A stretch of 64,000 nt of DNA from Syntrophobacterales bacterium. GTDB taxonomy: Bacteria; Desulfobacterota; Desulfobaccia; Desulfobaccales; 0-14-0-80-60-11. The notes below the pieces were generated by a model. It made no database searches. It had not been told where the DNA came from and saw only the letters and a program-made list of their open reading frames with translations. This document shows, piece after piece, positions 5,998 through 35,293 of the stretch. Position 1 is the first letter of the stretch. Each line of letters begins with the position of its first letter. Position numbers and translations under genes: made by a program. The DNA is taken from assembly GCA_037388025.1 (NCBI GenBank), contig JARRKO010000006.1:57067-121066 (forward strand), written 5' to 3'.

Positions 5998-8166
5998 TTA
6001 GTTTCTAATTTGGATGCCGCCGTAGATGGTCTGGATGGGCATCGGAAATCCGGCGGTCTCTTCGTAAAATTCCCCGGTCAGGTTGCTCACGCCGCCGTAA
6101 ACATAGCCGGTAAAGCCCTTCCAGTTGCCCACCGGGTAGCGGCCCTCCAGATTGAGGGTGAAAAAGCCCTTCATGCGCCGCAGGAAGCTGCCGATAACCT
6201 GATTCTGAGAGTTCACCAGCACCTGTGGTTCGTAGCGCTGGGAAACCATACGCACGTAAAGTTTGGCTTCAGCCCCCTTGGGGTTTTGGTATTTCAGGCC
6301 GATATTGGCCTTGTGTTCCGGATATTCCGCCAGCCGGCGGACATTTCCTCCCAAAGGGTCAGGGCTGGTGGTGGTCTGCTGCCAGGTGTAATTGGCAAAG
6401 GCCGTCAGGTTATAAGGCAAGCCGATCTGCCCCTCCACTTCCACGCCTCGGAGTAAGACGAGGTCGATGTTGTACACCACCCGGCTGGGGCGAAAGCCGT
6501 AGACGGTGCGAATGTAATTGTTGATGTCGTAGTAATAGCCCCGTACCCGCAGTTTGCCATTGTAGGGAAATTCTTGGGTGATCCCCGCCTCATACTGCAT
6601 GCCGAATTCCGGCTCCAGCACCGGCCCCCGGTCAGAAGGGATGTAGCCGTTGCCGAACCAATATACCTCCGGGATGGTGGGGAACCGAGACGCGAAGTTG
6701 ATGGAGATAAACCCTTCGGTGGTCTCCGTGGGCCGAATGATGAGGGTGCTTTTGGGGCTGAGGAAATCCCGGCGCAACGGTGGCACCACGGTACCAGTAG
6801 TGCTGATCAGGTACTTATCGGCGAAGTAGTTGTCATAGCGCAGGCCCAGGTAGAGTTCGCACCACTTGGCCAAGAACATTTTGGCATCGATGAAGCCGCC
6901 GTAAATCCGCTCGGCGTTCTTATTGGCGCCGCTGCTGGAGGGAGCAAACCGGAAATAGGCCGGATCATAGAAATCATTGGTCAAGGCACCGTAACCCAAA
7001 TAGTTGCCTTCCAGACCGAAGCCGAGCCGCACCTTGCCGAAGGTTTGGTTGGTCTTGAGATTCCAGCCCCAGGAGTCTTCATCCAGGCTGTGCCGTTCCA
7101 GGATGAGCAGGTCGTTGTTATTTAAGGCATAGAATTTATCTCGCCGGGCCGTCTGAAAGTAGAACAGGTTGCCCTCCACCTCGCCCTTCCAGAGTTTTTG
7201 CTTCACCGCCAGGTCGATTTCGAAGCGCCGGCGATCGACAAAGCTGTTGTCGCCGTAATCATATCCTGGACCGCCTCCTGGACCGGGTTTGAACCCCCAA
7301 AACGGCGGCTCTGGTCCGAAGAGGATATCGCCGTCGCTGCTGGGATGGTCCGGATTGTAGAAGGGCAAAAAGGCCCGGTTGGCCACAATCATGCCGGTGT
7401 TCTGGGCGCTGTATCGAGCCCCCAGGGTAATGCTCATGTCCCAGGGACAGTGGTACGTGAACTTGCCGTTGTAATCCTGGGAAGGACGGACAAAGTTGTT
7501 TCGCAAGTAGCCGGTGGTTCTGCCGAAGTTCCCGGATATGGCGTACTCCAGCGGGCCATGGCTGCCGGTGTGGGCCAAGCGGTAGTTCTGGGTGTCCCAA
7601 CTGCCGTAACTGGCGTCAAAGGCCAACTTCGGCTTTTTACTGCCCTTGACCGTGGTGATATTGACCACTCCCCCCAGGGTGTTGCCGTATTCCGCGGATT
7701 GGGCCCCCCGGATAATCTCCACGCTCTCCAGGCCGGCCAGGGACAGGGTGGACCAGTCCACAAAATAGCCGCCATACACCCCCACACCCTTGATGGAGCG
7801 TCCGTTGAGATAGACCTGATAGCGGGACTCGTCAAACCCCCGAATCACCACCTGCCGGTTTTTTTCCCCCAACAAGGACACCCGGGTCAAATCAATGCCG
7901 GCTTGATTTTCCAAGTAGCCCGGCAGATTCTGATAAGGGGCGAGAGTCATGTCCTCTTGCTTGATCACGGTGCGGGCGGGTCCCGGTTCTATGGGCGCCA
8001 CCACCTCGATGGTGGGCAGTTTCTCCGGTGCTTCCTTGGTAACTGCCGCCGTTTCTTCCTTCCCCAGGGAAGGCTCGGTTTGCTCTTCCCCTGATACCCC
8101 CGAGGCCAAAAATGCCAGCGATAATCCTACCAAAATCGCCAGCCTGCCCCATTTGCTAACCTGCAT
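5998..8166 (-). CDS. TonB-dependent outer membrane receptor
   Basis: Signal peptide; plug motifs IRGFD, VEIIRGAQSAEYG, GGVVNI; barrel LGLRYD; ATG at 8166 preceded by AGGAG. Confidence 0.92.
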   Translation of the reverse strand: MQVSKWGRLAILVGLSLAFLASGVSGEEQTEPSLGKEETAAVTKEAPEKLPTIEVVAPIEPGPARTVIKQEDMTLAPYQNLPGYLENQAGIDLTRVSLLGEKNRQVVIRGFDESRYQVYLNGRSIKGVGVYGGYFVDWSTLSLAGLESVEIIRGAQSAEYGNTLGGVVNITTVKGSKKPKLAFDASYGSWDTQNYRLAHTGSHGPLEYAISGNFGRTTGYLRNNFVRPSQDYNGKFTYHCPWDMSITLGARYSAQNTGMIVANRAFLPFYNPDHPSSDGDILFGPEPPFWGFKPGPGGGPGYDYGDNSFVDRRRFEIDLAVKQKLWKGEVEGNLFYFQTARRDKFYALNNNDLLILERHSLDEDSWGWNLKTNQTFGKVRLGFGLEGNYLGYGALTNDFYDPAYFRFAPSSSGANKNAERIYGGFIDAKMFLAKWCELYLGLRYDNYFADKYLISTTGTVVPPLRRDFLSPKSTLIIRPTETTEGFISINFASRFPTIPEVYWFGNGYIPSDRGPVLEPEFGMQYEAGITQEFPYNGKLRVRGYYYDINNYIRTVYGFRPSRVVYNIDLVLLRGVEVEGQIGLPYNLTAFANYTWQQTTTSPDPLGGNVRRLAEYPEHKANIGLKYQNPKGAEAKLYVRMVSQRYEPQVLVNSQNQVIGSFLRRMKGFFTLNLEGRYPVGNWKGFTGYVYGGVSNLTGEFYEETAGFPMPIQTIYGGIQIRN

Positions 8167-18978: not shown

Positions 18979-19054
18979 GGGCCGTTAACTCAGTTGGTAG
19001 AGTATCTGCCTTTTAAGCAGAGAGTCGCTGGTTCGAATCCAGCACGGCCCACCA
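18979..19054 (+). tRNA. tRNA-Lys(TTT)
   Basis: GGGCCGT/ACGGCCC acceptor stem, TCTGC-CTTTTAA-GCAGA anticodon arm, GTTCGAATC T-loop, encoded CCA. Confidence 0.97.
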
Positions 19055-19074
19055 GATCCACAAGTTAATTTTGC

Positions 19075-19152
19075 GTCCCCATCGTCTAGCCTGGTCCAGG
19101 ACACCGGCCTTTCACGCCGGCGACACCGGTTCAAATCCGGTTGGGGACGCCA
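19075..19152 (+). tRNA. tRNA-Glu(TTC)
   Basis: GTCCCCA/TGGGGAC acceptor stem, CCGGC-CTTTCAC-GCCGG anticodon arm, GTTCAAATC T-loop, encoded CCA. Confidence 0.97.
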
Positions 19153-24161: not shown

Positions 24162-26474
24162 ATGGACACCTCAAATAACCCCGAAAAGATTCAGCCGGAA
24201 AAGTCTGCGGCCTCTAAACAGGCGACTCCAGAAGGGGAACAGCCCAAAGCCGGCGGCTGGTGGCGTCCGGTAATCCTCCTGGGGCTGGTAATAGCGGTGA
24301 TGGTGCTGGCCTGGGTCTTTGACCTGGGTATGTACTTGGAGTATACCAGGGACTGGATTCGGGGTCTCGGGTCCCTGGGTCCCCTGGTCTTTCTGGTTAT
24401 TTATATCATCGCCGTGGTCACCGCCCTTCCGGGCTCGGTCATCAGCATCGCGGCCGGAGCCCTCTTCGGTTCGGTTCTGGGGGTTATCCTGGTCAGCATC
24501 GGGGCCACCGTCGGCGCCAGTCTGGCTTTTCTGATCTCCCGCTATTTCGCCCGGGAGTCCGTGGTTAACTGGCTGGGGAAGAGCGAGAAATTTCAGCGCC
24601 TGGATCGCCTGACCGAAGAACAAGGCGCCATCATCGTGGCCCTGACGCGGCTGGTCCCTCTTTTTCCTTTTAATCTCCTTAACTACGGTTTCGGGCTGAC
24701 CCGGGTGCCTTTCTGGACCTATGTCTTTTGGTCTTGGTTGTGCATGCTGCCCGGCACCATCCTGTACGTGGTGGGTGCGGACGCGGTGACCAAGGCCCTG
24801 GCCCGACGCCATGTTCCCTGGGTGTTGGTGGTGGCCTTTTTGGCGGCCCTGGTTTTCCTGGTAATCATCGTTAGGTTGGCCAAACGCCGGCTGAGCACCG
24901 CAGAAATGACCGCGGCCACGGCTGGAATGTCTTCCGGTCCAGCAGAGCCCATGACCCTGCCTGAAATGACCCCCCTGGATGAACACAATCAGGAGCTCAT
25001 GGCCAATACTCATCCGGGAGATTGGGTAAATCCGGAGCCCGCGCCGGTCTATAACCTGATGGTCGTCGGGGCCGGCACCGCCGGGCTGGTCTCCGCGGCC
25101 GGGGCCGCCGGCCTGGGGGCCAAGGTGGCCCTGGTGGAACGCCACCTCATGGGCGGCGATTGCCTCAATTACGGCTGCGTGCCTTCCAAGGCGGTTATCC
25201 GCTCCTCCCGGGTGTATGAAGATATTCGTCAGGCCGGCTCTTTGGGCGTGGGGGTGCCGGCAGGGGTGGCGGTGGATTTCCCTGCGGTTATGGCCCGCAT
25301 GCGGCGTCTGCGGGCCGGCATCAGCCACCATGACTCAGCCCAGCGCTTCCGGGACCTGGGGGTGGATGTCTTTTTAGGGCAAGGCCGCTTCACCGGCCCC
25401 GACACCGTGGAGGTGGACGGCAAGACCTTGCGCTTTAAAAAAGCCGTGATCGCCACGGGCGGCAGAGCCGTGCATCCCTCTATCCCAGGTCTGGCCGAGG
25501 CCGGCTACCTCACCAATGAGACGGTGTTTTCCCTGACCGAACGGCCCCGCCGTCTATTGGTCATGGGCGGCGGTCCCCTCGGCTGCGAGTTCGCCCAGGC
25601 CTTTCAGCGTCTGGGCTGCCAGGTGACCCTGCTGCACAAGTACTCCCATATCATGAACCGGGAGGACCCGGACGCCGCCGAAATTATCCAGAATACTTTT
25701 CTCCGGGAAGGCCTCCACCTGATCCTTAACGCCAAGCCCACCCGGGTGGTAAAAACCGAGTCGGGCAAAGCGGTTTCCTATGAGCAGAACGGCACGGAAC
25801 AGGTCATCGAGGTGGACGAGATTTTGATCGGCGCCGGCCGGGCTCCCAACGTGGAGGGCCTCAACCTGGAAGCCGCCGGGGTCAAATATGAAGGGGGCAA
25901 GGGCCGGGGCGTCCTGGTAAACGACAAGCTCCAGACCTCCAACCCCAACATTTACGCAGCCGGGGACATTTGTCTGCCTTACCAGTTCACCCACCTGGCC
26001 GACGCCTCAGCCCGCATCGTCATCCAAAACGCCCTGTTCCTCGGGCGCCGGAAGCTGAGCGCCCTGACCATCCCCTGGTGCACCTATACCGACCCGGAAG
26101 TGGCCCACGTGGGCCTCTCAGAACAAACGGCCCAAAAACAAGGGATTGCTTACCAGGTATTTGTGAAACCTTTGCGGGAAGTGGATCGGGCCATCCTGGA
26201 CGGAGAGGAGGACGGGTTCGTCAAGATCCTGGTCAAAGAAGGCAAGGACCAAATTCTGGGCGCCACCATCGTGGCCCGGCATGCCGGGGAAATGATCAGC
26301 GAGGTGACCTGTGCCATGGCGGGGAAAGTGGGCCTGGGAGCCCTGGCTTACGTTATTCATCCTTACCCGACCCAGGCGGAGGCGATCCGGGCCGTGGGCG
26401 ATCTCTACAACCGCACCCGCCTGACACCCTTCGTGAAAAATCTGTTCACCAAGTTCCTGGCCTGGCGCCGGTGA
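24162..26474 (+). CDS. VTT/SNARE-associated (TVP38/DedA) membrane domain fused to a MerA/Lpd-like FAD-dependent disulfide oxidoreductase
   Basis: N-terminal RLVPLFPFNLLNY; GAGTAG, GGDCLNYGCVPSK, YAAGD, HPYPT. Confidence 0.92.
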   Translation: MDTSNNPEKIQPEKSAASKQATPEGEQPKAGGWWRPVILLGLVIAVMVLAWVFDLGMYLEYTRDWIRGLGSLGPLVFLVIYIIAVVTALPGSVISIAAGALFGSVLGVILVSIGATVGASLAFLISRYFARESVVNWLGKSEKFQRLDRLTEEQGAIIVALTRLVPLFPFNLLNYGFGLTRVPFWTYVFWSWLCMLPGTILYVVGADAVTKALARRHVPWVLVVAFLAALVFLVIIVRLAKRRLSTAEMTAATAGMSSGPAEPMTLPEMTPLDEHNQELMANTHPGDWVNPEPAPVYNLMVVGAGTAGLVSAAGAAGLGAKVALVERHLMGGDCLNYGCVPSKAVIRSSRVYEDIRQAGSLGVGVPAGVAVDFPAVMARMRRLRAGISHHDSAQRFRDLGVDVFLGQGRFTGPDTVEVDGKTLRFKKAVIATGGRAVHPSIPGLAEAGYLTNETVFSLTERPRRLLVMGGGPLGCEFAQAFQRLGCQVTLLHKYSHIMNREDPDAAEIIQNTFLREGLHLILNAKPTRVVKTESGKAVSYEQNGTEQVIEVDEILIGAGRAPNVEGLNLEAAGVKYEGGKGRGVLVNDKLQTSNPNIYAAGDICLPYQFTHLADASARIVIQNALFLGRRKLSALTIPWCTYTDPEVAHVGLSEQTAQKQGIAYQVFVKPLREVDRAILDGEEDGFVKILVKEGKDQILGATIVARHAGEMISEVTCAMAGKVGLGALAYVIHPYPTQAEAIRAVGDLYNRTRLTPFVKNLFTKFLAWRR

Positions 26475-26641: not shown

Positions 26642-26719
26642 GTTCTTTTTGAAATGACGCATGCGGATGGGCCGACCCAGGTGTCGGCCCAAAAATTAAA
26701 CAGGCGGACACGCGGGTCC

Positions 26720-26803
26720 GCTAACTGCTAACTGCTAACTGCTGACTGCTGACTGCTGACTGTTGACTGTTGACTGCTGATAACTGATCACTGACCACTG
26801 GCC
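26720..26803. repeat. Graded heptamer tandem array (about 12 units)
   Basis: GCTAACT x3, GCTGACT x3, GTTGACT x2, GCTGATA, ACTGATC, ACTGACC, ACTGGCC; runs into the 3' end of the metK-like gene. Confidence 0.88.
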
Positions 26804-27993
26804 TTCAAGAGTTCCACCTTGTCAGTGGCCTCCCAGGGCAAAGAGAGGTCATCCCGCCCCATCTGGCCGTAAACCGCCAGTAGTCGGTAAAATTTGCCCT
26901 GGTGAAGAGACGGCAGGTTGCGGCAGTCAAAGGTCTTGAGAATGCCGGCCAGACGGAAATCGAAATGCTTCTTCACCAAGTCCGTCAGATCTTTATCAGA
27001 GCGGGTGCCGGTACCGAAGGTGTCCACCAGGATGCTCACCGGCCGGGCCAAACCGATGGTGTAGCAGAGCTGCACCTCACACTCCGAAGCCAGGCCGGCG
27101 GCCACTAGATTCTTGGCGGCATAGCGGGCGGCGTAGGCTCCCACCCGGTCGATGCGCAAGGCGTCTTTGCCGCTTAAGGCGCTGCCGCTGTGGCGGCCGA
27201 ATTCCCCGTAGGTGTCCACGTCGCTTTTGCGGCCGGTGAGTCCGGAATGCACTGCCGGCCCGCCCACCAGGAGGTGTTCCACCGGGTTGATGAAGATTTT
27301 GGTCTTTTTGTCCGGTTGCATCTCTCCATCGGCAAACACCGGTTTGATGATGACCTCCATGATGTCATCCTGCACCCGTTTGGAGGACACCGAATTGACT
27401 GTCGCTTTGGTGGAGCTGACAATTACCGTAATGCTGTGGAAACGGTAAGGGCTGCGGTTCCGGTACTCCACGCCCACCTGGGTTTTGGCGTCGGGCGACA
27501 GGTAGGGGATCAGCTTTTCTTTCCTGACCTGATCGATCCGGCGGGCCAGCTTGTGGGCCGTCCAGACGGGCAGGGGCATAAGGCTGGGCGTGTGATTGCA
27601 GGCGAAGCCGAAGACGTTGGCGTGCTGGCGCACATGAATCTTATCGATTTCCTGGTCGGTCAGTTGCTGCTCATTGAAATAGAGGTCCAGATCAGGAGGA
27701 TATTCCTGCAGGCTGGTGAGAATGCTGCAGGTCCGGGCGTCGAAATCCGGCTCCAGATACCCGATTTTACTGATGGTCTTGCGGGCGATATAGGACACAT
27801 CTCCCTTGACTTCCGCCGCAAACCGGGCGGCAATGAACAGAATGGAGGTGGCCACGGCGCACTCAGCCCTCACCCGGGCGTAGGGGTCCAGCTCAAGAAA
27901 ATGGTCGATGATGGCATCGCTCACCTGGTCGCATAGCTTGTCCGGGTGGCCCTCGGTGACGGATTCGGAAGTAAACACATAGTCTTTCTTCAT
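26788..27993 (-). CDS. Divergent methionine adenosyltransferase (MetK) paralogue
   Basis: FTSESVTEGHPDK, PDAK, GLTGRK, SGKD, YAARYAAKN are present; GAGDQG and the GGG signature are altered. Confidence 0.9.
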   Translation of the reverse strand: MKKDYVFTSESVTEGHPDKLCDQVSDAIIDHFLELDPYARVRAECAVATSILFIAARFAAEVKGDVSYIARKTISKIGYLEPDFDARTCSILTSLQEYPPDLDLYFNEQQLTDQEIDKIHVRQHANVFGFACNHTPSLMPLPVWTAHKLARRIDQVRKEKLIPYLSPDAKTQVGVEYRNRSPYRFHSITVIVSSTKATVNSVSSKRVQDDIMEVIIKPVFADGEMQPDKKTKIFINPVEHLLVGGPAVHSGLTGRKSDVDTYGEFGRHSGSALSGKDALRIDRVGAYAARYAAKNLVAAGLASECEVQLCYTIGLARPVSILVDTFGTGTRSDKDLTDLVKKHFDFRLAGILKTFDCRNLPSLHQGKFYRLLAVYGQMGRDDLSLPWEATDKVELLKASGQ

Positions 27994-30900
27994 GAGCTGA
28001 TCCTTGTACTCCGAGGTTCAGGCCTTGCTTCTTCTTGCTCAGCAGGGGGACGTTTGGTAGCCTCATTCACCACCAGGGGCAGGAGACTGCCGGCGGCGAT
28101 GACCAGGCCGTCCACAAGGCCGATGGGGGTGAGGCCCAGAAGACTTCTCAGACCCGGGAGCAGAATGGTCAGCCCCTGCAGGGCCAGGGAGCCACCCACG
28201 GCCCACCTTAGATAGGGATTGGGGGGGAGGCTTTCCTGGCTGAAAAGGCCGAGGTGCTCCGACCGGCAACTCACGGCATGAAGCAGTTGGCCCGTGGTCA
28301 GAGTATGAAACGCCAGGGTGCTGGACTGGGCTCCCAGGCCATAGCGCCAGATCCCGTAACCAAAGGCTCCCATGGACCCGGTGGTCATGACCGTGGATTC
28401 ATAGGCCATGCGCTGGTAGTCCTGTCTGGTGAAAATGGGCGCCTGCGGGTCTCGGGGCGGACGCGCCAAGATATCGGGTTCCGGCTCTTCCAGGGCTAGG
28501 GCCAATCCGGGGAAAATGTCGCTGATCAGGTTGATCCACAGAAGTTGGGCGGCCGTGATGGGGGAGCCCAATCCCACTGCCAGGGCCGTAAAAGTGATCA
28601 TGACTTCGCTCAGATTGGTGGCCAGGAAAAAATGTACTGATTTGCGGATGTTGTTGTATGTAGTGCGTCCGTCCCGGATGGCCACGATGAGAGTGTCCAG
28701 GTTGTCTTCTTCCAGGACCACGTCGGCCACCTCCCGGGCGATATCGGTGCCGGTGCTGCCCATGGCGATGCCCACGTTTGCGGCTTTGAGGGCCGGGCCG
28801 TCATTGATGCCGTCCCCCGTCATGGCGATGACGCGGCCGGATTTCTGGAGAGCCTGCACGATTTCCAGCTTGTGAGAGGGGCTTACCCGGGCAAAGACAT
28901 GAACCCGCTGGGCCAGGGCCCGCAGGGCCTCCGGCTCGATTTGGGACAGGAAAGAGGAATCCAGGATTTCCAGGGGCCGGCCCTGGCTGAGTTGCAATTC
29001 CTTACCAATGGCATAGGCGGTGGGGCCTTGATCCCCGGTGATCATCACGGTGTCGATGCCGGCTCCCTGAATGGCGGCAATGGCTTCTTTCACCCCGTCG
29101 CGAATGGGGTCAATCATACCCACCATGCCCAGCCAGGTGAGGCCGTTGGGCGCCCCAGTCTCTTCCGTGACTTCGCCTTCGCCGTAGGCCACGCCCAGGA
29201 CCCGCTGGGCTTCTCCGGCCATGTGCTCGTTTTCCGCTTCCACGGCCTGCTTTTCCACCTCGGTGAACGGCAGGCGCCGGCCGCCTTTGACATGCCAAGC
29301 GCACAGGGCCAGAACCTCGGTGGGGCTGCCCTTGAGGGCTAAAAAACGCCCTTTCTTGGGGTGTTGGTGCAGGGTGCCCATGTATTGCCGGCCTTCGGCG
29401 CGGTGATTGGTGCGGAGCAGAGGATAACGGCTCCGGAGCTTCTCCACGTCTACCTTCGCCTCCAGCGCCAGTTCCACCAAGGCATTCTCCGTGGGTGTGC
29501 CGCGGAGGGCATAGGTGCCGTTCTCCCGGTAAATCTCGGTTTCATTACATAGTACCGAGACTTCCAGGAGTTGCTTCAACTCCCGGTAGCTGAGAGGGGG
29601 AAGTTTTTCCGGACCCGAGAAATGGCCGTTATCCACCCGGAAGGACTGCATCCCCGCATAGATCTGGACCACGGTCATTTGGTTCCGGGTAATGGTGCCG
29701 GTCTTATCGAGGCAGACGGTTTGCACCGAACCCAGGGTTTCCACGGCGTTAAGGCGGCGGATGAGCACATGGTGGTGGCGCATATCTCGGATGCCCAGAG
29801 CCAGAGTGGTGGTGGCCGCCGCCGGCAGTCCCTCGGGCACCGCCGCGGCGGCCAAGCAGATGGCATTGCGCAGCATGGTCAGGAAGGAAAAACCCCGCCA
29901 CAGGCCGATGACAAACACCACCCCGCAGACACCGCAGCAGACCACCACCAGTTGATCCCCCACCGTGGTGAGTTGTCGCTCCAAGGGCGTTTCCGGAGTG
30001 GCGGCTTCCCCCACCAGGGTTTGGATCAGGCCGATTTCGGTGTAGCTGCCGGTGGCCACCACCACCGCCAGCCCCTCGCCGCCGGTGACCAGGGTCCCCA
30101 TGAAGATCATGTTCAGCCGGTCAGCCAGGGGAATATTGTCCTTCTGGAGAGCCTGGGTGGATTTCAGCACCGGCAGGCTTTCCCCGGTCAAGGCGGATTC
30201 GTCCACGGACAGGTGATGGGCCGACACCAGCCGGGCGTCCGCCGGGACGTAGCTTCCGGGGCGCAGCACCACCAGTTCACCCGGCACCACTTCCTCCGCA
30301 GAAATCTCTTGTAACTTCCCCTCCCGCATCACCAGGGCCACCGGGCGGACCAGGGTCTGGAGGGAGCGGATGATTTTTTCCGACTCAGTTTCGGTCTTGT
30401 AGCCGATGGCGGCGTTGAGCACCACCACTCCCATGATCAGGATGGCGTCCACCAGGCCGCCGGTGACCACCGACAAGCCGGCGGCCGCCCCCAGGAGGGC
30501 CACGGGCAGGGACTTGAACTGGTCAAAGAAAATCTCCCAGCCGGGGCGAGGCTCAGACTCCGGCAGGAGGTTGGGGCCATAGGTTTTCAGGTTGTTTGCC
30601 ACCTGGAAGGCAGTCAGGCCTTGATCCGGGGAAGTTTCCCACCGGGCCAGCACCGCTTCAGGCTCCCACAGGTGCCAGGGTTCCAGGGGTTGGTCTGCGG
30701 CTCCGGCAAACAAATATTTGATACCGCGGCGGGCGAGGGAGGATGGTCCAGAGCCGGCCTCCGGCCTGAGGGTCGGCCGGGCCGGTTCTTCGTGGGGGTC
30801 GTCCTGGCCGAGGTTGGTTTGATACTCGGTGACAATCCCGGTAATCAGGGCGGCAATGGTCTCTGGAGTGTTGTCGGTATTGTAGCACACCAGCAAATTG

Positions 30901-31094
30901 CCGGTGAGGGGGTTGGCCGACACCCGGCTGATATCCTTGATGCGGCCCAGCCGGGATTCCAGCAGCCTCTTGAGGCTTTCAGAGTGGCGTAGTCCGGGTA
31001 CCCGATAACGGGCTCTCCCCGCCACCGCAGTGTGAATCGCCTCAACCATAGAAAAGCTTTCTGAGCACGAGACCCCGCCAGGCGGCGCCCTCAT
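27990..31094 (-). CDS. P2A-type (Ca2+-like) cation-transporting P-type ATPase with an N-terminal HMA_2-like domain
   Basis: TGES, AVPEGL, DKTGT, MITGD, GDGINDGPAL, NLSE, QLLWINLISD; N-terminal HTAVAGRARYRV...SANPLTGNLLVCY; start 31094 or 31049. Confidence 0.93.
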   Translation of the reverse strand: MRAPPGGVSCSESFSMVEAIHTAVAGRARYRVPGLRHSESLKRLLESRLGRIKDISRVSANPLTGNLLVCYNTDNTPETIAALITGIVTEYQTNLGQDDPHEEPARPTLRPEAGSGPSSLARRGIKYLFAGAADQPLEPWHLWEPEAVLARWETSPDQGLTAFQVANNLKTYGPNLLPESEPRPGWEIFFDQFKSLPVALLGAAAGLSVVTGGLVDAILIMGVVVLNAAIGYKTETESEKIIRSLQTLVRPVALVMREGKLQEISAEEVVPGELVVLRPGSYVPADARLVSAHHLSVDESALTGESLPVLKSTQALQKDNIPLADRLNMIFMGTLVTGGEGLAVVVATGSYTEIGLIQTLVGEAATPETPLERQLTTVGDQLVVVCCGVCGVVFVIGLWRGFSFLTMLRNAICLAAAAVPEGLPAAATTTLALGIRDMRHHHVLIRRLNAVETLGSVQTVCLDKTGTITRNQMTVVQIYAGMQSFRVDNGHFSGPEKLPPLSYRELKQLLEVSVLCNETEIYRENGTYALRGTPTENALVELALEAKVDVEKLRSRYPLLRTNHRAEGRQYMGTLHQHPKKGRFLALKGSPTEVLALCAWHVKGGRRLPFTEVEKQAVEAENEHMAGEAQRVLGVAYGEGEVTEETGAPNGLTWLGMVGMIDPIRDGVKEAIAAIQGAGIDTVMITGDQGPTAYAIGKELQLSQGRPLEILDSSFLSQIEPEALRALAQRVHVFARVSPSHKLEIVQALQKSGRVIAMTGDGINDGPALKAANVGIAMGSTGTDIAREVADVVLEEDNLDTLIVAIRDGRTTYNNIRKSVHFFLATNLSEVMITFTALAVGLGSPITAAQLLWINLISDIFPGLALALEEPEPDILARPPRDPQAPIFTRQDYQRMAYESTVMTTGSMGAFGYGIWRYGLGAQSSTLAFHTLTTGQLLHAVSCRSEHLGLFSQESLPPNPYLRWAVGGSLALQGLTILLPGLRSLLGLTPIGLVDGLVIAAGSLLPLVVNEATKRPPAEQEEARPEPRSTRISS

Positions 31095-31113: not shown

Positions 31114-31776
31114 TTACTCTGATTTACTCTTGGGGGCCTTCTTTTCGGGCGTGGCCTCGGCGCCGGTCCCCGAGGGCCTCTCACCTTTGGGCATCATCGC
31201 GGCGACCACGTCTTTGAGCCCACCCACCGCGGTCACCAGGACATCCCGCACCCCGGTGATGGCGGTCTGGCTCAAGGAGCTAGCCGCTTCCATGGCCCCG
31301 GTTACCGCCGCTTTGGTTGCGCTGCCCACATTGCTGCCGGCCTGGCCGGCTGCCTCCATGACCCCGGAAACCGCGCTCCGGGCCACCAGGGCCACGTCGC
31401 CGCCCACCTCGCTGGCGCCGCGTACCGCGCCCTTCACCAGGTTGGTGGCGGCCTGGTTCACGTCGCCGCCCACGTCGCCCACGGCCAGGAGGATGCCCTT
31501 GGCCACACCTTTGGTGCTTGCCACCACATCGCCCCCCACTTCCTGGGCAGCTTCGATGGCCCCTTTAAACACATCCTTGCTGACGTTGATGGTTTCCGTA
31601 GCCACGGAGCCCGTGGTTTTCAGCGCGTCAGTCACCGTCTGCCGGGTAACATTGACAATCTCGGTTTCAATCTCTTGGATTCCCTTGAGACTGCCGACGA
31701 TGCCGTCTTTGACTTTGGTGCCGGCCTTACCTAAGGATTCCCCGGCCCCGCCTTTTTCTTTGCTTTCAGGTGCCAT
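31114..31776 (-). CDS. Hypothetical protein with 8 x 22-residue Gly/Ala/Val amphipathic repeats
   Basis: GGAGGT RBS before ATG 31776; EVGGDV-type motifs recur every 22 aa. Confidence 0.85.
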   Translation of the reverse strand: MAPESKEKGGAGESLGKAGTKVKDGIVGSLKGIQEIETEIVNVTRQTVTDALKTTGSVATETINVSKDVFKGAIEAAQEVGGDVVASTKGVAKGILLAVGDVGGDVNQAATNLVKGAVRGASEVGGDVALVARSAVSGVMEAAGQAGSNVGSATKAAVTGAMEAASSLSQTAITGVRDVLVTAVGGLKDVVAAMMPKGERPSGTGAEATPEKKAPKSKSE

Positions 31777-31879
31777 TGCGACCTCCCGGACAAATGTTCT
31801 TGCTGCTGAGTGCTCCCCGGTCTGAGGGGCCGAAGCTGGTTCTCCGGCCACCCAGGAACTCTGGGGAAATCTGGTTGGT

Positions 31880-32173
31880 TTACAAGTACTTACCCAAGTA
31901 GGACGCCAACTCCATGGAATTGACTTCCGGGAAAAAAGTACCCATGGCGTCCTTCAGGGCCCACAACGAGCGTAGGGACGTCACCTCCGCTTGGTCAAAA
32001 CGCATCTGCACTGCACCCTGTTGCGGGTCCACCTCGACGCTGGTAATTCCCTGAATTGCCGAAAACCGTGTCTGAAATTCTTCCGCCAGAGATTCATTTC
32101 CTTTGAGCTTGGCCACGGACAAACTCAGATAACCGGGTTCTGCCTGGATAACTTCGATGCCTTCAATGTTCAT
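31880..32173 (-). CDS. Degenerate HMA_2-like domain protein
   Basis: IQAEPGYLSL...IQGITSVEVDPQQGAVQMRFD aligns with neighbouring HMA_2 domains; likely ATG at 32173. Confidence 0.7.
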   Translation of the reverse strand: MNIEGIEVIQAEPGYLSLSVAKLKGNESLAEEFQTRFSAIQGITSVEVDPQQGAVQMRFDQAEVTSLRSLWALKDAMGTFFPEVNSMELASYLGKYL

Positions 32174-32615
32174 GTTCCACCCTGTGTTGAGGTTATGAGG
32201 TTCCGCGTCAGAAACACCAGGGCCGGAAGGCAATCAAGGCAGCGCCGTTGGCAGCTTGATTATACGGGTTTTCCGGCCGGCTCACCACTAACGGTTAGCG
32301 ATATATATTTTAATATATATATGAAATTATACCTTTCCAGAGAGACCAAAACTTTTTGTGTGGAATATGGGTTAAGGGCTACGACCCTGAATAACACGGG
32401 CCTACCTCCCTGTCCCCCTTCTCCGGCGCAGTTGCCTCATGTCCTTTGCGGAGCTAAAGAAGTAACTCGCCTCATTATAACTGCTATCGCAATGGGACCC
32501 CGAAAGGACATTAAAGAGTAAAATTAACAAAAATTTAATAATTACAACATGAACTTATAACTTTCAGGGTTGATCATTAATACTAACAAATTCGTTGGAA
32601 AGGGAACTTCCTCGT

Positions 32616-32987
32616 ATGACTGCCAGTTCCTCTTATGTCCATGCCTTGGAAGGACGGCTGCGCATTAAAATACCCGAAGTAAAAGGCGCTCCCCTCAAAG
32701 CCTGTGAGGTCGAGCGTCATTTGATCCAATCCCCCGGGGTGGATGAGGTTTCAGCCAACCCCACCACCGGCAGTGTTTTAATCCTCTATAATTCCCGCCT
32801 CATCGGCCAAGAAGAACTTCTCTTTGCACTTCAAGAAATCGGCTGTATGCAAGGATGTCAGCCCCAAGCTGCTGGGACCGTCGATACGGCTTCCAGTTCA
32901 GCAGGCACACTTGCCAAAGTGACCACCGCCGTGGCCTCCACCCTGATGGAAGCGGCTCTATCCCGCTTGGTGATCGCCCTTATTTAA
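32616..32987 (+). CDS. HMA_2 domain protein
   Basis: VHALEGRLRIKIP...PGVDEVSANPTTGSVLILYN; hydrophobic C-terminal helix. Confidence 0.85.
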   Translation: MTASSSYVHALEGRLRIKIPEVKGAPLKACEVERHLIQSPGVDEVSANPTTGSVLILYNSRLIGQEELLFALQEIGCMQGCQPQAAGTVDTASSSAGTLAKVTTAVASTLMEAALSRLVIALI

Positions 32988-33293: not shown

Positions 33294-33902
33294 TTATGAA
33301 CCAGGCTTGTGTTTGGGTCCCTCTGGCTTCAGGTCTGGCTTGGCCTTGCTATTGCGCAGGTTCAGCATGACGAAAGCGCTGAAACCGAACCACAAGTAAT
33401 CATACCAGGCTGGGAAGGTTCTTTGTTTTGAGGTCCACAGACTGCGAAACCCCAGAAACAGCAGGGCCAAGGGTGCCAGAAGCTTGAGGTCAAGTCCTCC
33501 CGTGAGCTCTGCCACCTTGGCATTAAGAGCTGCCAGGGATTCCACCGAAGAGATGGTGGGCTGGGGCACGCCGCCGGTGGCCTGGGGCACGCCGCCGGTG
33601 GCCAGGTGCCCCATCAGGGACTCGGCTTCCATCTCAAAAGCCTCTTTTTCAATTTCCGGAAACAGGGCGGCAAACCCATCGGTGAGAGCCGTAAAGGCCC
33701 CGGCTGCCAAAAGCTTCGCCAGGTCATAATAGATAAGAACACTGCCGGTAAGCGGTTTGGCTTCCACCCGCTCTATCCCCGACACTTGCCCCAGGATGTC
33801 CTCGGCCTTTTGGGCAAAGACCGGATCACCCTTGACCTTGTCCACCTTCAGACGCAGACGGCCGGGTATCGCATGGACCACAGTAATGCCCTTCACCGCC
33901 AT
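33294..33902 (-). CDS. HMA_2 domain protein with C-terminal membrane segments (FezC-like architecture)
   Basis: VHAIPGRLRLKV...TGSVLIYYD; LDLKLLAPLALLFLG...PAWYDYLWFGF. Confidence 0.85.
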   Translation of the reverse strand: MAVKGITVVHAIPGRLRLKVDKVKGDPVFAQKAEDILGQVSGIERVEAKPLTGSVLIYYDLAKLLAAGAFTALTDGFAALFPEIEKEAFEMEAESLMGHLATGGVPQATGGVPQPTISSVESLAALNAKVAELTGGLDLKLLAPLALLFLGFRSLWTSKQRTFPAWYDYLWFGFSAFVMLNLRNSKAKPDLKPEGPKHKPGS

Positions 33903-33931: not shown

Positions 33932-34207
33932 TTACTGTTTGCCCTTGGCCGCCTTTTCAGCCGCCGCCACTTCAGCGGCATGCTCCGCCTTACATTCGGC
34001 CATGAGATCGCTGATTTGTTCTCCGGCCTCGGCGGCATACTCTTTGGCGGTTTCGGCCAGGGCCAGATAGCCCTTGATAAGGGTCTTGGCCAGCGGACGG
34101 GAGACGGCGGCCACGGCAGGCAGCACGATGGGCGCTGCCAGGGCCACTCCCAAAACTACGAGAATGCTGGGAACTGCACCCTTAAAACCATCGTCGAATG
34201 TTGCCAT
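33932..34207 (-). CDS. DUF5132-like small membrane protein
   Basis: Hydrophobic LAAPIVLP, RPLAKTLIKG, AEAGEQISDLMAE; AGGAGG RBS. Confidence 0.82.
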   Translation of the reverse strand: MATFDDGFKGAVPSILVVLGVALAAPIVLPAVAAVSRPLAKTLIKGYLALAETAKEYAAEAGEQISDLMAECKAEHAAEVAAAEKAAKGKQ

Positions 34208-34318
34208 GGCATTCCTCCTTGGGGGAGATTAGCATAAAGGGGAATATATCAAGTAACCTCATAAAATACTAACAAAATCCTCATTTTTTATTAATGGATA
34301 TATATCATTTTGCGATAA

Positions 34319-34684
34319 ATGGACTTCAAAAAACAAATGCTGCATTCCTTCTGGCAAGGGATTTTAAAAGTATTTGTCCTGCATCAGGCGGCCCAGGGTC
34401 CCATCTATGGCGGTAAATTGAAGAAGCAGTTACAAGACTGGGGCTATGACATCAGTCCGGGCAGCCTGTATCCTTTGCTGCATGCCTTCGAAAAGGGCCA
34501 CCTGTTTCACAGTCGCGTGAAAATTTTTAAAGGCCGGGCCCGCAAGTACTATGAAATCACCGACCAGGGGCGCGCCGTTCTGGCTGAAATGCAACAAGAA
34601 TTGGACGTCATCATGACCAAACTGTTGTCAGCCGGCCGGCAGACCTCTGGTAAAAACCATCCCCAGCCGCGCTCCCACAACTAG
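34319..34684 (+). CDS. PadR family transcriptional regulator
   Basis: SPGSLYPLLH, RKYYEITDQGR; divergent from the DUF5132-like gene. Confidence 0.92.
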   Translation: MDFKKQMLHSFWQGILKVFVLHQAAQGPIYGGKLKKQLQDWGYDISPGSLYPLLHAFEKGHLFHSRVKIFKGRARKYYEITDQGRAVLAEMQQELDVIMTKLLSAGRQTSGKNHPQPRSHN

Positions 34685-34937: not shown

Positions 34938-35089
34938 TCCCGTAATTTAGCAGATCAGATAGAAAAGCTGGCACGCATAACGTCAGCCTGGGTTGGGCGT
35001 TTCCTGACGGTTTTTCACTGACTGCCTTCCCCTTTCTGATCTTCAGCAGGGGACGAGGAAGCACCATTTCAGGAGGTTTGGTAAAGTTA

Positions 35090-35293
35090 ATGAAGGAAAC
35101 AGGCAAGGTAAAGTGGTTTAATGACGCCAAGGGCTATGGTTTTATCTCCCGGGAAAACGGTCCTGATGTCTTCGTGCATCACACCGCCATCGTGGGGGAA
35201 GGCTTCAAAACCTTGGCGGAAGACCAGGAAGTGGAGTTTGAGGTGGTTCAGGGTCAGAAAGGCCTGCAGGCTCAAAACGTCGTCAAGATTTAA
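35090..35293 (+). CDS. Cold-shock protein (Csp family)
   Basis: [15 protein letters not shown] (RNP1), DVFVHH (RNP2). Confidence 0.96.

Follow-up and report, generated by a model that had tools for sequence, protein, structure and literature searches.

What does a MetK-like protein do when the residues that bind methionine have been replaced and its gene is joined to that of a cation pump? MetK, the S-adenosylmethionine (SAM) synthetase, is regarded as a single-function, universally conserved enzyme and serves as a marker. The question is raised by a gene in the window studied here, the whole stretch of 64,000 nucleotides (nt) that was analysed from a Syntrophobacterales bacterium (contig JARRKO010000006.1 of assembly GCA_037388025.1). 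The gene stands directly behind one for a P2-type P-type ATPase headed by a CoBaHMA (HMA_2) domain, and both are listed, with the other features of their operon, in Table 1. Our tentative answer is that it belongs to a neofunctionalised MetK-fold family, in which D238 has become H, K269 has become R and, usually, E55 has become R (mature E. coli MetK numbering, as throughout unless stated otherwise), and which is inherited, and translated, together with the CoBaHMA-headed ATPase.

The reading frame of the MetK-like gene is uninterrupted by stops, and a Pfam scan of the protein found all three MetK domains, N-terminal (PF00438), central (PF02772) and C-terminal (PF02773). It is 42% identical to E. 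coli MetK (158/380 aligned residues). An AlphaFold2 (AF2) model made with a 44-row alignment had a predicted local distance difference test score (pLDDT) of 91.3 and a predicted template-modelling score (pTM) of 0.92; its top Foldseek matches were MetK structures, with template-modelling scores of 0.88/0.95 and a root-mean-square deviation of 1.6 Å, and in this model the predicted fold is intact. The protein scores 375.9 bits against TIGR01034, the NCBIfam model for metK, whose curated cut-off is 309.4, and pipelines will therefore label the gene metK. The best 120 database relatives (64-94% identity) are indeed called “S-adenosylmethionine synthetase” or “methionine adenosyltransferase”, where any name is given.

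For the active site the public E. coli metK record (L229:586-1740) served as the reference and was aligned with the window protein and with MetK homologues from 158 public loci. Two Mg2+ ions, one K+ and the triphosphate chain are bound in the MetK site, which also performs an intrinsic tripolyphosphatase step. We take K269 to be a methionine contact of the E. coli enzyme and H14 to be the acid catalyst of C5'-O5' cleavage; K165, as we understand the E. coli mutagenesis, is required for SAM formation but dispensable for tripolyphosphatase activity. Further contacts are given in the available text of two papers: Q98, D238 and E55 for methionine and D163, R229, F230 and S99 for adenosine (PMC1282579), with F230 stacking on the adenine and T227 bonding its N1 (PMC8715544). 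The window protein has kept H14, D16, K17, E42, D163, K165, R244, K245, K265 and D271. Replaced in its N-terminal part are G54-E55 (A-R), Q98 (Y), S99 (P) and the GAGDQG loop at 115-120 (HVRQHA), and in its C-terminal part T227 (V), R229-F230 (H-L), D238 (H), the HGGG loop at 257-260 (HSGS), F262 (L) and K269 (R); in the protein's own numbering, R57, H249 and R280 occupy E. coli positions 55, 238 and 269, and these three, with R122, would line what was the methionine and adenosine pocket. The net change in the pocket, counted over sequence positions mapped to the published contacts, is at least four charge units toward positive. An alignment from a PDB search, which is independent of the E. 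coli record, gave the same residue pattern. A sequence-only reading of this DNA had drawn up its list of kept and replaced residues by eye; against the real E. coli metK every call was correct, both for the four methionine-binding positions (E55, Q98, D238 and K269, now R, Y, H and R) and for the retained triphosphate and metal ligands (H14, D16, E42, K165, R244, K245, K265 and D271). Its prediction that automated annotation would give metK is borne out by the TIGR01034 score and the names of the homologues.

Are these changes peculiar to one protein? Two scans of one-genome-per-species contigs returned the 158 loci with a MetK homologue, 56 with H238 and R269 and 102 canonical. The phyla of the 56, as named in the records, are Thermodesulfobacteriota (22 loci), Pseudomonadota (10), Nitrospirota (8), Cyanobacteriota (7), and Myxococcota, Binatota and Acidobacteriota (1 each). 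We defined the family by H238 and R269, which are therefore 57/57 by construction, and compared 57 family members, from at least seven named phyla, with 103 canonical MetKs from the same scans. H14, D16, K17, E42, R244, K245 and K265 are invariant in the family (57/57), and D163 and D271 are present in 56/57. Position 55 is R in 49 members, H in 6, K in 1 and Q in 1, that is, basic in 56/57, and position 98 is L, M, Y, H or F. Other changes are G54 to A (45/57), G117 to R/K (39/57), G120 to V/A (54/57), E129 to Q (52/57), G258 to S (55/57), G260 to A, S or N, F262 to L (56/57), A274 to G (55/57) and L335 to F (56/57). Among the 103 canonical rows the ancestral residue at the family-changed positions is 90-100% invariant: Q98, G117, G258, F262, D238 and K269 are found in 103/103, and position 55 is E in 96 and Q in 7. 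Some contacts vary within the family. The adenine contact F230 has been lost only in part (L in 22 of the 57, F in 22), as has D118 (changed in 44/57; N in 25, D in 13, Q in 12), and position 165 is K in 41, T in 9, E in 2, Q in 2 and S in 1. It is clear that the methionine contacts and part of the adenosine contacts have been replaced by a conserved, more basic set, and that the Mg2+, K+ and triphosphate ligands vary little or not at all between phyla.

The family has a divergent wing (P0131, P0133, P0137, P0142, P0161 and locus L132) in which K165 (mostly to Q) and further loop residues are replaced. L132, the only genomic example found, has the pump upstream; a third contig scan, made with an alignment of this wing, returned the same loci again, without close kin of the wing.

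Such substitutions could be those of a decaying duplicate without function, and in one related genome (G038, C15:21396-25289) the MetK-like gene consists of two pieces and contains a TAG. The adjoining ATPase match there has an in-frame TAA, and the locus may be an operon under loss or an assembly error. However, of the 24 carriers among the 41 related genomes searched, the other 23 have an uninterrupted frame, and the MetK-like frames of the 56 loci, which span at least seven named phyla, showed no gene-breaking stop. The same substitutions recur across phyla, and the ratio of non-synonymous to synonymous substitution rates (dN/dS) was 0.13-0.18 in five pairs of close family members. Decay is scarcely credible, and the pseudogene reading was ruled out by these conservation data.

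It is very unlikely, too, that the gene encodes a working SAM synthetase in the form of a specialised second isozyme. That proposal is consistent with the overall MetK fold and with a TIGR01034 score over the curated cut-off, which is shared by 6 of the 7 family members scored (307-404 bits). Against it, Q98, D238, K269 and E55, with the canonical counts just given, are all replaced across the family. Moreover, a canonical copy is present in every carrier examined. In the source genome (123 contigs, 92% complete) the second TIGR01034 match, of 563 bits on contig C37, carries every canonical motif, and the open reading frame (ORF) after it resembles adenosylhomocysteinase (ahcY). This metK-ahcY pair rules out the MetK-like gene as the sole metK; near the window gene, SAM riboswitches and methionine-cycle neighbours are absent. 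A canonical-type match (39-44% identity to the window protein) is present in 41/41 related genomes, as a fragment at a contig end in three of them, and a paralogue-type match (62-100% identity, 510-908 bits) in 23 of the 41, as well as in G038 in its split form. Both kinds are likewise present in 5/5 cultured carriers from other phyla (Chlorogloeopsis fritschii PCC 6912, Nitrosospira sp. Nsp14, Methylocystis sp. L43, Rivularia sp. UHCC 0363 and Vacuolonema LEGE 07170), and Hydrococcus rivularis NIES-593 also carries a family member. Judging by these gene contents, housekeeping SAM supply is the job of the canonical metK and not of the MetK-like gene. Chlorogloeopsis fritschii PCC 6912 (G041) has three TIGR01034 matches, a canonical one of 541 bits, the pump-linked one of 404 bits (L083) and a third, sub-canonical one of 386 bits (C1:1588354-1589532).

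The separateness of the family is also seen in a tree of 69 rows (quick IQ-TREE, LG+G4, unrooted). It took in 25 rows of the family's 57 (the window protein and 24 loci), along with 15 cluster representatives and 29 canonical MetKs; the remaining rows were omitted. A single branch, of length 0.51 and with a Shimodaira-Hasegawa-like approximate likelihood ratio test (SH-aLRT) value of 100, splits the 29 canonical MetKs, which span Cyanobacteria, Bacillota, Chloroflexota, Pseudomonadota and others, from the 40 MetK-like rows. The window protein groups with L003 and L005 (100* and 98*) within a 19-row starred set. Cyanobacterial members are nested among those of Thermodesulfobacteriota and Nitrospirota (98*), and this nesting suggests horizontal spread of the family.

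The family is also tied to a neighbouring gene. In 56/56 signature loci, against 0/102 canonical loci, the gene immediately upstream in the same orientation encodes a CoBaHMA-headed P2 ATPase. (The script counted 55; L116 was missed through ORF merging, its ATPase ending at 8004 and its MetK-like match lying at 8001.) The gap between the two genes ranges from -53 to +531 nt and is -4 in about a third of the rows listed; in the window the TGA of the ATPase gene overlaps the ATG of the MetK-like gene by 4 nt (ATGA), and AAGGA lies 9 nt upstream. A pump orthologue (at least 56% identity) and the MetK-like gene are both present in the same 24 of the 41 related genomes, and both are missing from the other 17. 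In the loci and genomes examined, the MetK-like gene was never found apart from the pump. An ordinary P2 ATPase (37-41% identity) is also present in most genomes, including the source genome (contig C7). Its match begins only at about query residue 100-190, so that the CoBaHMA head is lacking; wherever its position was listed, the source genome included, it is well apart from the MetK-like gene, either on another contig or at a large distance along the same one. The sequence-only reading had looked to a distinct clade, to a canonical metK elsewhere in the genome and to conservation of the substitutions, and had named the ATPase as a possible partner. The window protein does fall on the non-canonical side of the SH-aLRT 100 branch, the canonical gene lies with ahcY on another contig, and the low dN/dS and the recurrence of the same changed positions across phyla speak for conservation by purifying selection and not decay; the tie to the ATPase is far stronger than could be seen from the window, given the 56/56 loci and the perfect co-occurrence in the related genomes.

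The partner has the Pfam domains E1-E2_ATPase, Cation_ATPase_N/C, Hydrolase and HMA_2. Its top NCBIfam model is the PMR1-type Ca2+ ATPase (601 bits, under the cut-off of 798), and the nearest solved structures are SPCA1 (8iwp) and Listeria LMCA1 (6zhf). The PEGL glutamate, an Asn/Glu pair in transmembrane segment 5 and an Asn/Asp pair in transmembrane segment 6 are invariant in 46/46 orthologues, a combination that we take to be the Ca2+-ATPase pattern; the H21/G26/R27/R29 motif of the CoBaHMA head is likewise invariant in the 46/46 partner ATPases aligned. The protein is a P2 pump of Ca2+ type, with Ca2+ as a candidate transported ion.

What, then, might the MetK-like protein do for this pump? 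The answer that we lean towards, short of confidence, is that it is a tripolyphosphate, short polyphosphate or nucleoside triphosphate (NTP) hydrolase serving the pump. From the roles of the replaced residues it would form no SAM, and the metal-triphosphate moiety would still be bound at the invariant site. The acidic residues E55, D238 and D118 are replaced by Arg/His, His and Asn/Gln and G117 by R/K, which therefore favours a ligand with negative charge beyond the triphosphate; the rebuilt cationic half-pocket could accept this further anionic group. The hydrolase activity would be an elaboration of MetK's own tripolyphosphatase half-reaction, and it would serve the pump and the small CoBaHMA and DUF5132 membrane partners encoded with it, possibly by coupling the release or removal of (poly)phosphate with movement of polyphosphate-bound Ca2+. 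The invariant ligand set appears to be more than would be expected of a mere scaffold. Furthermore, given the role of K165 in the E. coli enzyme, its variability (K in 41/57) would fit a tripolyphosphatase that forms no SAM.

Several points weigh against this proposal. F230 is kept in 22/57 members and the ribose contact D163 in 56/57, so that nucleoside binding may persist, and this speaks more for an NTP substrate, or for a transferase, than for inorganic polyphosphate; the invariance of H14, if it is the acid catalyst, fits a retained transfer reaction too. The loss of SAM synthesis is deduced from residue roles, the “cationic pocket” is a set of sequence positions mapped onto published contacts, and physical contact of the MetK-like protein with the pump is putative. 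Finally, Pfam scans found no pst/pho or other phosphate-metabolism gene near the operon in the window, and PstS-like genes flank only 4/56 loci.

The retained nucleoside contacts could instead point to a nucleosidyl (adenosyl) transferase, in which ATP would be cleaved at C5' and passed to an anionic acceptor in place of methionine. Retention of H14, D163 and, in part, F230 is what such an enzyme would need, and R and H now stand in place of E55 and D238, the binders of the methionine amino group, as though a negative charge of the acceptor lay where methionine has its amine. On the other hand, the adenine contacts are variable or lost, in the window protein among others (T227V, F230L, S99P and the GAGDQG loop); K165, taken to be essential for transfer, is T, E, Q or S in 14/57; and a downstream enzyme that could use such a product does not recur in the flanks of the 56 loci. 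A transferase therefore seems distinctly improbable.

The main rival to hydrolysis is a role without catalysis. The MetK-like protein could be a ligand-sensing subunit that binds ATP, triphosphate or a related metabolite and tunes pumping through the cytoplasmic domains of the ATPase or its CoBaHMA head. Complete synteny, the both-or-neither distribution among the 41 related genomes (24 and 17) and the stop-start overlap are what would be expected of subunits made in a fixed ratio; in addition, several glycines of the catalytic loop are replaced (G258 to S in 55/57, G260 to A, S or N), and K165 is dispensable in the family. However, the metal and acid-catalysis residues H14, D16 and K17 are invariant and D271 is kept in 56/57, which is more than binding usually needs, and the contact with the pump that a sensor would require is itself putative. 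A complex prediction for ATPase residues 1-215 and 455-790 with the MetK-like protein had a median score of 0.39, with one unrelated control at 0.53, and bears neither way on binding. We regard the sensor as a serious but rather unlikely alternative, and retain the hydrolase as the tentative choice.

The operon of which the pump and the MetK-like gene form the end is set out in Table 1. It reads, on the minus strand, DUF5132, 202-residue CoBaHMA, the inverted CoBaHMA gene, 117-residue CoBaHMA, repeat protein, ATPase, MetK-like, and has the features of a CoBaHMA/DUF5132 cation-pump operon, with HMA_2 on the ATPase and on three small ORFs and DUF5132 on the first gene. The inversion of one CoBaHMA gene is found in loci L004-L008 as well, and a homologue of the repeat protein directly precedes the ATPase in many related loci.

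Table 1. Features of the pump/MetK-like operon and its borders (window positions)
Feature	Position	Strand	Evidence and remarks
Terminator-like hairpin after the MetK-like gene, operon end	26704..26721	-	6-pair stem, 5 G-C, T-rich tail; consensus match only
MetK-like protein (His238/Arg269 family)	26788..27993	-	401 aa; MetK Pfam domains, residue alignment, AF2 and Foldseek
P2-type (Ca2+/Mn2+-like) P-type ATPase, N-terminal CoBaHMA (HMA_2) head	27990..31094	-	1034 aa; Pfam, NCBIfam, structure match
Ala/Gly/Val-rich repeat protein, operon member	31114..31851	-	245 aa; without a Pfam family; weak Senescence-domain match below cut-off
Small CoBaHMA (HMA_2) protein	31880..32233	-	117 aa; PF19991, 31.8 bits
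Small CoBaHMA (HMA_2) protein, opposite strand within the cluster	32595..32987	+	130 aa; PF19991, 41.1 bits
CoBaHMA (HMA_2) protein	33294..33902	-	202 aa; PF19991, 66 bits; C-terminal stretch hydrophobic by eye
DUF5132 protein, first operon gene	33932..34207	-	91 aa; PF17195, 39.2 bits
Perfect palindrome GATATATATC between the PadR gene and the operon	34297..34306		Candidate operator
PadR-family regulator, divergent from the operon	34319..34684	+	PF03551, 61.5 bits

The divergent PadR gene recurs in L004-L008, that is, in 5/5 Desulfobaccales-type loci with enough upstream sequence. The palindrome is found at the same place, as GA(T/C)ATATATC, in the window, L004, L006, L007 and L008, and was not seen in L005; from its position, GATATATATC is a candidate PadR operator. 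A Pho box for the operon was not supported by the upstream repeats in the window or by genome counts. A GTTA-N7-GTTAA direct repeat lies upstream in L005, L006 and L008 (as a TTGA variant in L007) and was not seen in the window; in the source genome it was found 33 times, against about 56 expected, with none near phoU loci. TTGTTA words, present in the cluster and ahead of one pstS, were too weak to count. No Rfam families, riboswitches included, were found near the operon. A search of sequencing runs listed 20 DNA runs with the sequence, from metagenomes of salt marsh, marsh, marine sediment and mangrove, but not one RNA run.

Some smaller features of the region may be recorded. Between the stop of the MetK-like gene and the hairpin is a 7-bp tandem repeat (26720-26780; plus-strand consensus GCTGACT, 8.7 copies, 94% matches), and the gene for the 202-residue CoBaHMA protein has a 21-bp tandem repeat (33555-33603, 2.3 copies) that duplicates GGVPQ(A/P)T in the linker after the CoBaHMA domain. 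Convergent with the operon is a gene for a 770-residue protein in which a VTT/DedA membrane domain is fused to a pyridine nucleotide-disulfide oxidoreductase (24162-26474, plus strand); L086 and L123 have weaker relatives close to the operon. Beyond the PadR gene are a cold-shock-like ORF of 71 residues, read by eye (35078-35293, plus strand), and a Na+/H+ exchanger family gene (PF00999; 35758-37029, plus strand); two adjoining tRNA genes lie at 18979-19149 (plus strand). Besides the PstS-like genes, the flanks of the 56 loci hold ABC ATPases in 5, histidine kinases in 12 and a double zinc-ribbon protein in 12. The last, of about 100 residues, is usually beside the inverted CoBaHMA gene (L009, L084, L089, L091, L094, L096, L098, L101, L103, L109, L111 and L113); no equivalent was noticed in the window.

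How does this arrangement compare with known systems? Canonical MetK (EC 2.5.1.6, TIGR01034; E. coli PDB 1FUG/1RG9/7R2W, L. plantarum 7R3B) shares with the MetK-like protein the three-domain methionine adenosyltransferase (MAT) fold and the metal, K+ and triphosphate ligands. Unlike it, the MetK-like protein has the methionine contacts and the GAGDQG and HGGG loops replaced, and the family lies across a fully supported branch, is not housekeeping and is invariably paired with a P-type ATPase in the loci examined. The CYTH or triphosphate tunnel metalloenzymes would have the same activity as that proposed here, hydrolysis of tripolyphosphate or short polyphosphate, but the likeness is in working only, since the CYTH fold is unrelated and the Pfam scan of the window protein gave MetK domains only. 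MAT2B with MAT2A, and the small regulators of SERCA-type pumps, resemble the present pair by concept only, each being a dedicated accessory of a catalytic partner. Unlike MAT2B, in our case the MetK fold itself would be the accessory and a pump its partner; a sequence relation to MAT2B was not sought.

A closer likeness is to the neighbourhood of ccyA, the calcyanin gene. According to the available text of bioRxiv 10.1101/2024.07.07.602159 and PMC8890360, CoBaHMA and DUF5132 genes lie near a Ca2+ transporter gene in the ccyA neighbourhood of Microcystis aeruginosa PCC 7806, and such genes beside Ca2+ transporters are discussed for carbonate-forming cyanobacteria. The same small-protein families thus accompany a Ca2+ transporter gene there and, as a putative one, in the window operon. 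However, the transporter of those papers, as described in that text, is a Ca2+/H+ exchanger, found with calcyanin, whereas the window pump is a P-type ATPase; Pfam scans of the window ORFs turned up no calcyanin gene, although a search aimed at calcyanin was not made. The available text of the bioRxiv paper does not mention “P-type”, “MetK” or “adenosylmethionine”, and that of PMC8890360 mentions ATPases in passing only and “adenosylmethionine” not at all. The latter also describes, in the same available part, Ca-rich polyphosphate inclusions in Chlorogloeopsis fritschii PCC 9212, whose sister strain PCC 6912 carries the pump/MetK-like operon (L083). This link to calcium and polyphosphate chemistry is circumstantial. 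A search of the full-text literature, which had Gaschignard et al. 2024 (Proteins, on CoBaHMA) and supplements, which may bear on the matter, beyond its scope, did not turn up any account of a P-type ATPase with a MetK-like partner. The pump-associated MetK-like family is apparently undescribed.

A broader form of the proposal, which we hold to be doubtful, is that the MetK fold was recruited as the (poly)phosphate enzyme of a multi-phylum Ca2+ machine that builds or dismantles Ca-rich polyphosphate or carbonate inclusions, its other parts being the CoBaHMA-headed pump, the membrane-anchored CoBaHMA and DUF5132 proteins and the amphipathic repeat protein. If true, a fold that is ancient and supposedly limited to one function would have a new enzyme activity, and the finding would give a handle on bacterial calcium and polyphosphate storage.

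As far as computation goes, the picture of a known fold in a new functional variant, widespread and systematically misannotated, is supported. MetK has a large sister family in cyanobacteria, sulfate-reducer lineages, Nitrospirota, Proteobacteria and others, most members of which are annotated metK, almost certainly wrongly. This misannotation corrupts metabolic reconstructions, for example by giving a genome two apparent SAM synthetases, and it hides an unstudied partner of a calcium-type pump. Since the family is present in cultured strains, its function is directly testable.

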